A stretch of 64,000 nt of DNA from Escherichia coli (lineage in GTDB: Bacteria > Pseudomonadota > Gammaproteobacteria > Enterobacterales > Enterobacteriaceae). Both the position numbers and the translations under genes were made by a program. Location of the stretch: assembly GCF_003334785.1 (NCBI RefSeq), contig NZ_QOWV01000001.1; one strand, given 5' to 3'. Positions 29,196 to 30,153 of this stretch are shown here, one piece after another (position 1 is the first letter of the stretch; every line of letters begins with the position of its first letter). Below the pieces are notes generated by a model, which had not been told where the DNA came from, did not search any database, and saw nothing but the letters and a program-made list of their open reading frames with translations.

Positions 29196-30153
29196 TTACA
29201 GAGTTTCCTCAAAGAACGGAGCTAATACTGAAATTGCTTCAGCCACATAGGCTTTGCCGTCATAAAGATCCATATGGTTTGCGCCTTCAACAATGTGATA
29301 GCGTTTATCCTGGCTTGATGCTCGATCGTACAGGTCGTCACTCATCCATTTGCTCCCTGCCTGGCTGCCCGCCACAATCTGCGTCGGCTGAGTCAGGTAC
29401 ACTTCCGCCATATGGTAAGCATCATAGGTAATAATCTGGTTAAGGCTGCGCAAAGTAGCGTAACTTAAGGCTGCGCAAAGTAGCGTAACCCGGTGCTGTT
29501 GGATACTGCGCGCGAGGGGTGTGGTAATACTCCCAGGCCTGACGCAGTTCTTCGTTCGGCGCATCGGACTCCTTCATTGGTGCCAGTGGCATAATGGCGT
29601 ATTCTCCGCTGCTAATATCGCTGGTTCTGGCGTTTGAACCCGCTTCAACGTATGGCAGGGCATCAATAGATTTCACATTGTTTTCCCAACCATTACGGAA
29701 TATCGAACCAATATTGACCGCACTAACGGTACCGATGGCCTTGATGCGGCGATCCTGAATTGCAGCATTGGCTGTATATCCTGCACCGGCACAAATTCCC
29801 ATCGCACCAATTCGGGTATTGTCGACATAAGAAAGCGTTGTCAGGTAATCAATCACGGCACTGATGTCTTCAGTACGAATGTATGGGTTTTCTAACTGAC
29901 GCGGCTCGCCGCCACTTTCACCTTGATAAGATGCGTCATAAGCAATAGTGACAAATCCCTTTTCCGCCAGTTTTTTGGCATAGGTTCCGGCCGTTTGTTC
30001 TTTAACGCCCCCACCTGGGTGAGATAACACAATTGCCTGATACTGACGGGTTTCATCAAATTTTGGAGGGAAATAGATCACTGCAGACAAAGAGATGGTT
30101 GGATTATTGCTGTTAGTGAAGCTGACTTTATTATTCATCATTCCGTTCCTCAT
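29196..30153 (-). pseudogene. ycjY: alpha/beta-hydrolase (dienelactone hydrolase/S9-like) interrupted by a 25-bp tandem duplication
   Basis: Two overlapping ORFs (29440..30153 and 29196..29564) share the peptide YATLRSL either side of the duplication; removing one copy gives a single ORF of about 306-310 codons. Confidence 0.75.
29440..29489. repeat. perfect 25-bp tandem duplication (2 copies) inside ycjY
   Basis: ttaaggctgcgcaaagtagcgtaac at 29440-29464 repeated exactly at 29465-29489. Confidence 0.9.

Follow-up and report, generated by a model that had tools for sequence, protein, structure and literature searches.

The ycjY locus and its tandem repeat

The window, by which we mean the whole 64-kb stretch of Escherichia coli DNA analyzed here, shares with K-12 the gene order tyrR-tpx-ycjG-mpaA-ycjY-pgrR-mppA. 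Within it, ycjY is read from the minus strand (29196..30141) and is the first gene of a PgrR-regulated peptidoglycan-recycling operon that also includes mpaA (PMC5934670). The LysR-type regulator of this operon is encoded divergently by pgrR, also named ycjZ (30279..31178, plus strand); in the window, a private G-to-A change at 30907 produces the substitution R210H in PgrR. The downstream gene mpaA, which encodes murein tripeptide amidase (28133..28861, minus strand), is intact. Between ycjY and mpaA lies the remnant of an NAD-dependent dehydratase gene of the ymjC/ymjD region (28988..29125, minus strand), a pseudogene in genomes with and without the ycjY lesion described below. The divergent ycjY-pgrR promoter region contains a direct repeat, TGATTAGACC, present twice with an 18-bp spacing (30212-30239), which might be a binding site for a regulator.

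The most conspicuous feature of ycjY is an exact tandem repeat of two 25-bp units at 29440-29489. The unit, TTAAGGCTGCGCAAAGTAGCGTAAC, occurs on the minus strand as a promoter-distal copy (29440..29464) and an identical promoter-proximal copy (29465..29489). Tandem Repeats Finder scores the element at 100, with 2.0 copies, 100% matches and no indels, and reports it as the sole perfect tandem repeat of the 64-kb window. Identity at period 25 spans exactly 50 nt and extends by 0 nt on either side. By a simple arithmetic estimate, about 6e-11 exact 25-nt tandem copies would be expected in a sequence of this length (64,000 x 4^-25), and the repeat is therefore not explicable by chance. Its surroundings are otherwise plain: no further notable repeat lies within 200 bp, no Rfam family is nearby, and promoter-like or terminator-like sites at the repeat are at or below shuffle expectation. 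Rfam matches elsewhere in the window correspond to the small RNAs FnrS (46218-46335, plus strand), MicC (51147-51267, plus strand) and McaS (42745-42840, minus strand).

As 25 bp do not make up whole codons, the reading frame of ycjY shifts at codon 226. The minus-strand ORF 29440..30153 ends in ...YATLRSLKLRYFAQP*, that is, in eight aberrant codons followed by a TAA at 29442-29440, which forms the final three transcribed bases of the promoter-distal copy and precedes the normal stop by 244 nt. The remaining C-terminal part (...NQIITYDAY...EETL) is stranded in another frame, within the out-of-frame minus-strand ORF 29196..29564 that contains ...YATLRSLNQIITYDAY...EETL. The whole pseudogene thus measures 946 nt (921 + 25). 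Its 5' part (29440..30141, minus strand) encodes 225 native residues, eight aberrant ones (KLRYFAQP) and a stop; its 3' part (29196..29441, minus strand) encodes residues 226-306 and a stop, and contains His281 in the motif GANHMD. Counted from the K-12 start (MMNNK), the truncated product has 233 amino acids. An upstream in-frame ATG at 30153 yields a mechanical ORF of 237 amino acids; this longer form is absent from the public protein collection, where the 233-residue form is present.

In silico removal of one copy gives a single ycjY ORF. The resulting DNA is 100% identical to K-12 MG1655 over 1,126 bp, as it is to many other genomes, and the restored 306-residue product is 100% identical to the YcjY protein of PDB entry 5XB6 (COG1073/dienelactone-hydrolase-like). 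The one-copy gene of the window would hence encode exactly the K-12 protein, from which the actual allele differs in consisting of residues 1-225 plus eight unrelated ones. The ORF is broken relative to a near-identical intact orthologue, K-12 ycjY, as expected of a pseudogene. A sequence-only reading of this DNA had proposed that a 25-bp exact tandem duplication frameshifts ycjY, that the protein ends eight codons after the junction with its C-terminal part out of frame, and that deleting one copy restores an alpha/beta-hydrolase ORF. We checked repeat, frames and stop, and every descriptive detail is accurate.

The restored protein matches the Pfam families DLH, Abhydrolase_1, Peptidase_S15 and S9, all consistent with the alpha/beta-hydrolase superfamily. 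These matches run over residues 21-291 of the 310-residue query (subtract 4 for K-12 numbering), with the Abhydrolase_1 match extending to residue 291, and the fold therefore probably needs the C-terminus lost from the truncated form. Besides this fold, restored YcjY has the other hallmarks of the family: a G-X-Nuc-X-G elbow (GICAG, with Cys117 as the nucleophile) and a C-terminal histidine (His281). The GXCXG motif of YcjY has been noted previously (PMC3709699). His281 is conserved in the Pseudomonas homologue PA2218 (GANHMDLYD vs GASHVDLYD), and both this alignment and the topology of the alpha/beta-hydrolase fold point to a catalytic role for this residue. The truncated protein keeps the GICAG motif and lacks the last 81 residues, His281 included; because of this loss, the allele is very probably null and its product is predicted to be catalytically dead. 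The premature stop might also have a polar effect on mpaA.

Distribution and age of the allele

Counting carriers of the duplication calls for a query that spans the junction tightly. A 120-nt query across the repeat is non-discriminating, as single-copy genomes are then joined as two overlapping pieces. We used instead a 40-nt query with no possible match other than the duplication junction (junction k-mer GCTGCGCAAAGTAGCGTAACTTAAGGCTGCGCAAAGTAGC) on 5,426 complete E. coli genomes. The junction was found in 52 of them (~1%), once in each, always on the chromosome and always in ycjY, and it is the same in all 52. It is absent from the ~5,180 other genomes that have the locus, even where, as in many of them, the ancestral sequence is identical.

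This distribution also bears on the reliability of the repeat, which the sequence-only reading had judged unlikely to be an artefact. If the true copy number were one, the same error would have to recur in 52 independent complete assemblies produced by many laboratories on various platforms. One of these, the genome of strain ML35, was assembled from PacBio reads and polished with Illumina data (PMC5814495). Moreover, public entries for exactly this 233-residue product, under many accessions, come from at least 1,000 contigs. On these grounds the repeat is not an assembly artefact, and an origin in assembly or sequencing error has a practically negligible probability.

The carriers belong to phylogroup A / the ST10 complex, represent several serotypes and come from many countries on several continents. 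Their sources include humans, pigs, chickens, a dog, a crow, an opossum, vegetables and wastewater. Among them are the strains NCTC9041, NCTC9087 and NCTC9100, which we take to be mid-century O-antigen reference strains. Strain ML35, likewise a carrier, is an isolate from lac work of the 1950s (PMC5814495). Other carriers with a published description are 98-3133 (O157:H16, ST10; PMC11597368), RM10410 (O113:H4, phylogroup A; PMC10562709) and FORC 064, described as a close relative of an ST10 strain (PMC7984374). The view that the inactivation is recent is not supported by these observations: an allele present in 52 of 5,426 genomes from such varied hosts, countries and serotypes, ML35 and three NCTC 90xx strains included, and with a product encoded by at least 1,000 contigs, has been in circulation for decades.

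The gene is already marked as defective in public annotation. In ML35, 98-3133, Z1323CEC0003 and VE-F10, the RefSeq/PGAP label reads 'alpha/beta hydrolase, pseudo, frameshifted'. None of the papers found to mention ycjY describes the duplication allele. The ycjY duplication is thus an ordinary, already annotated, lineage-specific pseudogene, neither private to the window nor recent on a human timescale. It resembles other frameshifted pseudogenes called by PGAP in its ORF broken relative to a near-identical intact orthologue, in its lineage-restricted inheritance and in the later secondary lesions it has received. It differs from them in the nature of the lesion, a 25-bp tandem duplication, where 1-2-bp homopolymer indels, IS insertions and nonsense mutations are commoner.

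The allele matters little beyond bookkeeping. The 25-bp insertion is a clean, PCR-typable marker of a sublineage of the phylogroup A / ST10 complex. It also carries a caution: an exact tandem duplication may look 'fresh' and yet be decades old and widespread, the perfection of a repeat implying neither recency nor reversibility.

Origin and genealogy of the duplication

Over the 25 kb around ycjY, the window is matched best by 49 of the 52 carriers. Behind them come single-copy genomes (CP8-3_Sichuan, ETEC4073 and others), whose lower scores are fully explained by the 25-bp gap. In a 45-kb alignment of four sequences, with the window and Z1323CEC0003 as carriers and two single-copy relatives for comparison, no variant except the duplication distinguishes carriers from relatives. 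All remaining differences are private to one genome, and the duplication therefore arose on a common K-12-like haplotype of phylogroup A. With four sequences, this local genealogy is star-like, so that it neither dates the duplication nor separates ancestors from revertants.

Two further lesions mark subclades within the carriers. The first is a perfect 56-bp tandem duplication, again in ycjY, situated ~155 bp further upstream (3546-3658 of the VE-F10 locus, corresponding to about 29645-29700 of the window). Its junction is found in exactly three genomes (VE-F10, PEC399 and NZ_OZ121069), and all three carry the 25-bp duplication. The second is an 11-bp deletion in abgA (CGATGGCTGAC, window 41263-41273) that frameshifts this gene. 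Exactly 13 genomes have it, all of them carriers of the duplication and most of them from Korean and Japanese poultry.

We infer that the duplication arose once, in an ancestor within the phylogroup A / ST10 complex, because its endpoints are identical in all carriers with no microhomology to guide them and its junction is absent from ~5,180 other genomes. Very probably, then, the window carries a stably inherited loss-of-function allele of ycjY that goes back to a single 25-bp duplication in that ancestor. According to this scenario, the event would have struck a ycjY gene identical to that of K-12; translation would shift at codon 226 and end eight codons further on, leaving a 233-residue product that retains the Cys117 elbow, has lost its last 81 residues with His281, and would be catalytically dead. 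The allele would since have been inherited, chiefly by vertical descent, for ~70 years or more as a neutral or tolerated pseudogene in continuing decay. It has probably lost enzymatic activity and is probably close to neutral.

Inheritance may not have been exclusively vertical. A Rac-type prophage (intR, xisR, ralR, recT) sits beside ttcA in ML35 (locus 42091-45000), BR1220 and FDAARGOS_1337, and there is no prophage beside ttcA (~49000-49300, ttcA-uspF) in the window, 98-3133, Z1323CEC0003, NCTC9100, CP8-3 and ETEC4073. The presence of Rac varies among carriers and non-carriers alike. Because carriers differ in this prophage, it is possible that the ycjY allele has spread horizontally by recombination to some extent.

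The sequence-only reading had called the repeat a typical product of replication slippage. Classic slipped misalignment predicts microhomology at the endpoints of a duplication, and here there is none (0 bp; flanks CTGG/TTAAGG...GTAAC/CCGG, with slashes at the endpoints); a classic slippage origin is therefore unsupported. Other slippage duplications use flanking microhomology, in contrast to this one. In the CTGG hotspot of lacI, reportedly described by Farabaugh, Miller and colleagues in 1978, the gain of a tandem unit likewise causes a frameshift that precise loss would repair. That system, however, starts from an existing tandem array with a 4-bp unit, whereas the ancestor of the ycjY allele had a single copy of a 25-bp unit. 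Most likely, the duplication originated through a one-off template switch independent of microhomology, or through an error in nick processing.

Two other sources were considered. Insertion sequences in E. coli leave target duplications of 2-14 bp; a length of 25 bp is outside this usual size and no IS remnant is present, which speaks against an IS footprint. A hairpin-promoted origin was suggested by the ancestral 25-bp unit itself, which has a 5-bp inverted repeat (GGTTA...TAACC) at its two ends and whose predicted hairpin, with an additional inner stem, spans nearly exactly the duplicated unit. The stability of this hairpin (-6.4 kcal/mol, z = -0.68; other strand, z = -0.18) does not exceed that of shuffled sequence, and we keep it as a weak lead only.

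The same structure could be taken as the sign of a mutational hotspot, at which the 25-bp duplication would recur independently and carriers would be unrelated by descent at the locus. The near match between hairpin and duplicated segment, and the existence of a second perfect duplication in the same gene, would fit such recurrence. Apart from the unremarkable stability of the hairpin, three observations weigh against it: all 52 junctions are identical with no microhomology to direct them to the same place; carriers lie on one near-identical haplotype inside which the subclade markers nest cleanly; and not one of ~5,180 other genomes has the junction, many of them with the identical ancestral sequence. 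Recurrence at a hotspot is accordingly very improbable, and descent from one event is the reading that we retain.

It is nonetheless a peculiarity of this lineage that one 921-bp gene has received two perfect tandem duplications, of 25 bp and 56 bp, both essentially without endpoint microhomology (the 56-bp repeat extends by 1 nt only, to 113 nt instead of 112). That the pair reflects a local process independent of microhomology, such as hairpin- or nick-templated re-synthesis, or alternatively that selection in a sublineage of the ST10 complex favoured ycjY inactivation together with the pgrR changes, is an idea to which we give little credence.

Reversion, decay and dispensability

The lesion had further been described as potentially reversible. 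This is conceivable in principle, as the two identical 25-bp units, being direct repeats, can mispair and are a substrate for RecA-independent deletion. Seen in this way, ycjY would be a reversible switch: OFF with two copies, and turned ON by slipped-strand loss of one copy at a biologically relevant rate. Consistent with this, single-copy genomes are otherwise the same as carriers over 45 kb, and a revertant would be locally indistinguishable from an ancestor. The nested subclades offer a way around this difficulty, since a revertant would combine a private marker of either subclade with a single 25-mer. No such genome was found: both copies are kept in each of the 16 genomes that make up these subclades (0/16 revertants).

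Copy number is equally constant in the wider set. For 49 of the 52 carriers, locus lengths fit exactly two copies, with no three-copy allele seen among these 49 by locus length; nor is there any variation in copy number within the nested subclades. Phase-variable loci, such as the simple-sequence repeats of Haemophilus and Neisseria or the 6-bp repeat of mutL in Salmonella, share with ycjY a tandem repeat in a coding region whose copy number sets the reading frame. They differ in that ycjY has only one or two copies in the population, exactly two in carriers, and none that vary in nested subclades. In addition, the ycjY unit is long and lies in the 3' third of a gene for a cytoplasmic hydrolase, an unusual place for phase variation, and lesions are accumulating around it. 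We therefore regard a switch as very unlikely. Of the claimed reversibility, the mispairing of repeats remains imaginable, and the loss of a copy has left no sign where it was looked for, several carriers having instead acquired added lesions at the locus.

These lesions inactivate the gene or its operon further, and none amounts to a rescue. Together, the 25-bp and 56-bp duplications add 81 bp, a multiple of the codon length, which made frame rescue in VE-F10 a candidate worth considering. The C-terminal frame does return in this genome, but two stop codons intervene, so that the double duplication represents decay and not rescue. In NCTC9100, a deletion of ~12 kb joins what is left of ycjT to the shortened 3' side of ycjY (locus ~19860-19890); it removes pgmB, ompG, ycjW/X/F, tyrR, tpx, ycjG and mpaA while the 25-bp duplication is retained. 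The carrier 98-3133 has a frameshifted pgrR, and a variant of the truncated protein from one carrier (P0030) has an extra missense change. The ycjY allele behaves like a tolerated, decaying pseudogene and not like a switch.

Inactivation of ycjY is not confined to this lineage. Other truncated forms of the protein with distinct breakpoints (P0018, P0019, P0020 and P0021) are encoded on 24-112 contigs each: P0018 (112 contigs) has an out-of-frame tail after residue ~125, P0019 (92 contigs) has one after residue ~121, and P0020 (83 contigs) reaches a stop near residue 82. These three fall into one protein cluster with the 233-residue product. Partial forms of YcjY also occur in Shigella sonnei. 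Because independent truncated alleles exist, the sequences suggest that ycjY has been inactivated several times in E. coli and that the gene is dispensable. The duplication allele adds to the evidence that this uncharacterized hydrolase, although it heads a PgrR-regulated operon, can be dispensed with in nature.

Dispensability leaves room for the view that loss of ycjY was not tolerated but selected, for instance if the protein interferes with cell division or peptidoglycan recycling. Over-expression of ycjY leads to filamentation (PMC3614548), and its position at the head of the PgrR operon (PMC5934670) would fit an effect of this kind, as would the several independent truncations in E. coli and Shigella. 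The regulator, too, is altered in some carriers: besides R210H in the window and the frameshift in 98-3133, ML35 has a PgrR protein of another accession, while four single-copy relatives have the common allele. Against this, carriers make up only ~1% of genomes, and repeated pseudogenization is equally expected under drift for a dispensable gene. The pgrR changes, present in 3 of 7 carriers and 0 of 4 non-carriers examined, are too few for significance. Adaptive loss is thus rather unlikely; if true, selected loss of ycjY, accompanied by pgrR changes, in a sublineage of the ST10 complex would point to a fitness cost of a peptidoglycan-recycling hydrolase. The tolerated pseudogene of single origin remains our preferred reading.

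The window itself has several changes of its own outside this history. Its positions 17000-41999 have no exact match among complete RefSeq E. coli genomes; the best matches, SHP24 and NCTC9087, show three mismatches in 25 kb, all three private to the window. In abgB, which encodes subunit B of p-aminobenzoyl-glutamate hydrolase on the minus strand, a private A-to-C change on the plus strand at 39922-39924 converts TAT into a TAG amber stop and splits the gene into the ORFs 39922..40344 and 38899..39882. This stop is absent from the three compared relatives and from the best database matches. In ycjS, a member of the Gfo/Idh/MocA dehydrogenases that is intact in the three compared relatives, the private loss of one base from an A5 run at 15390-15400 (GCGAAAAACC to GCGAAAACC) splits the gene into the ORFs 15095..15415 and 15394..16149; it reflects either a genuine frameshift or a sequencing error in the homopolymer. 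Over 45 kb, the window has six private changes, of which two inactivate genes and two alter an amino acid. This is an unusually damaging set, and it could fit a laboratory-passaged or mutagenized strain.
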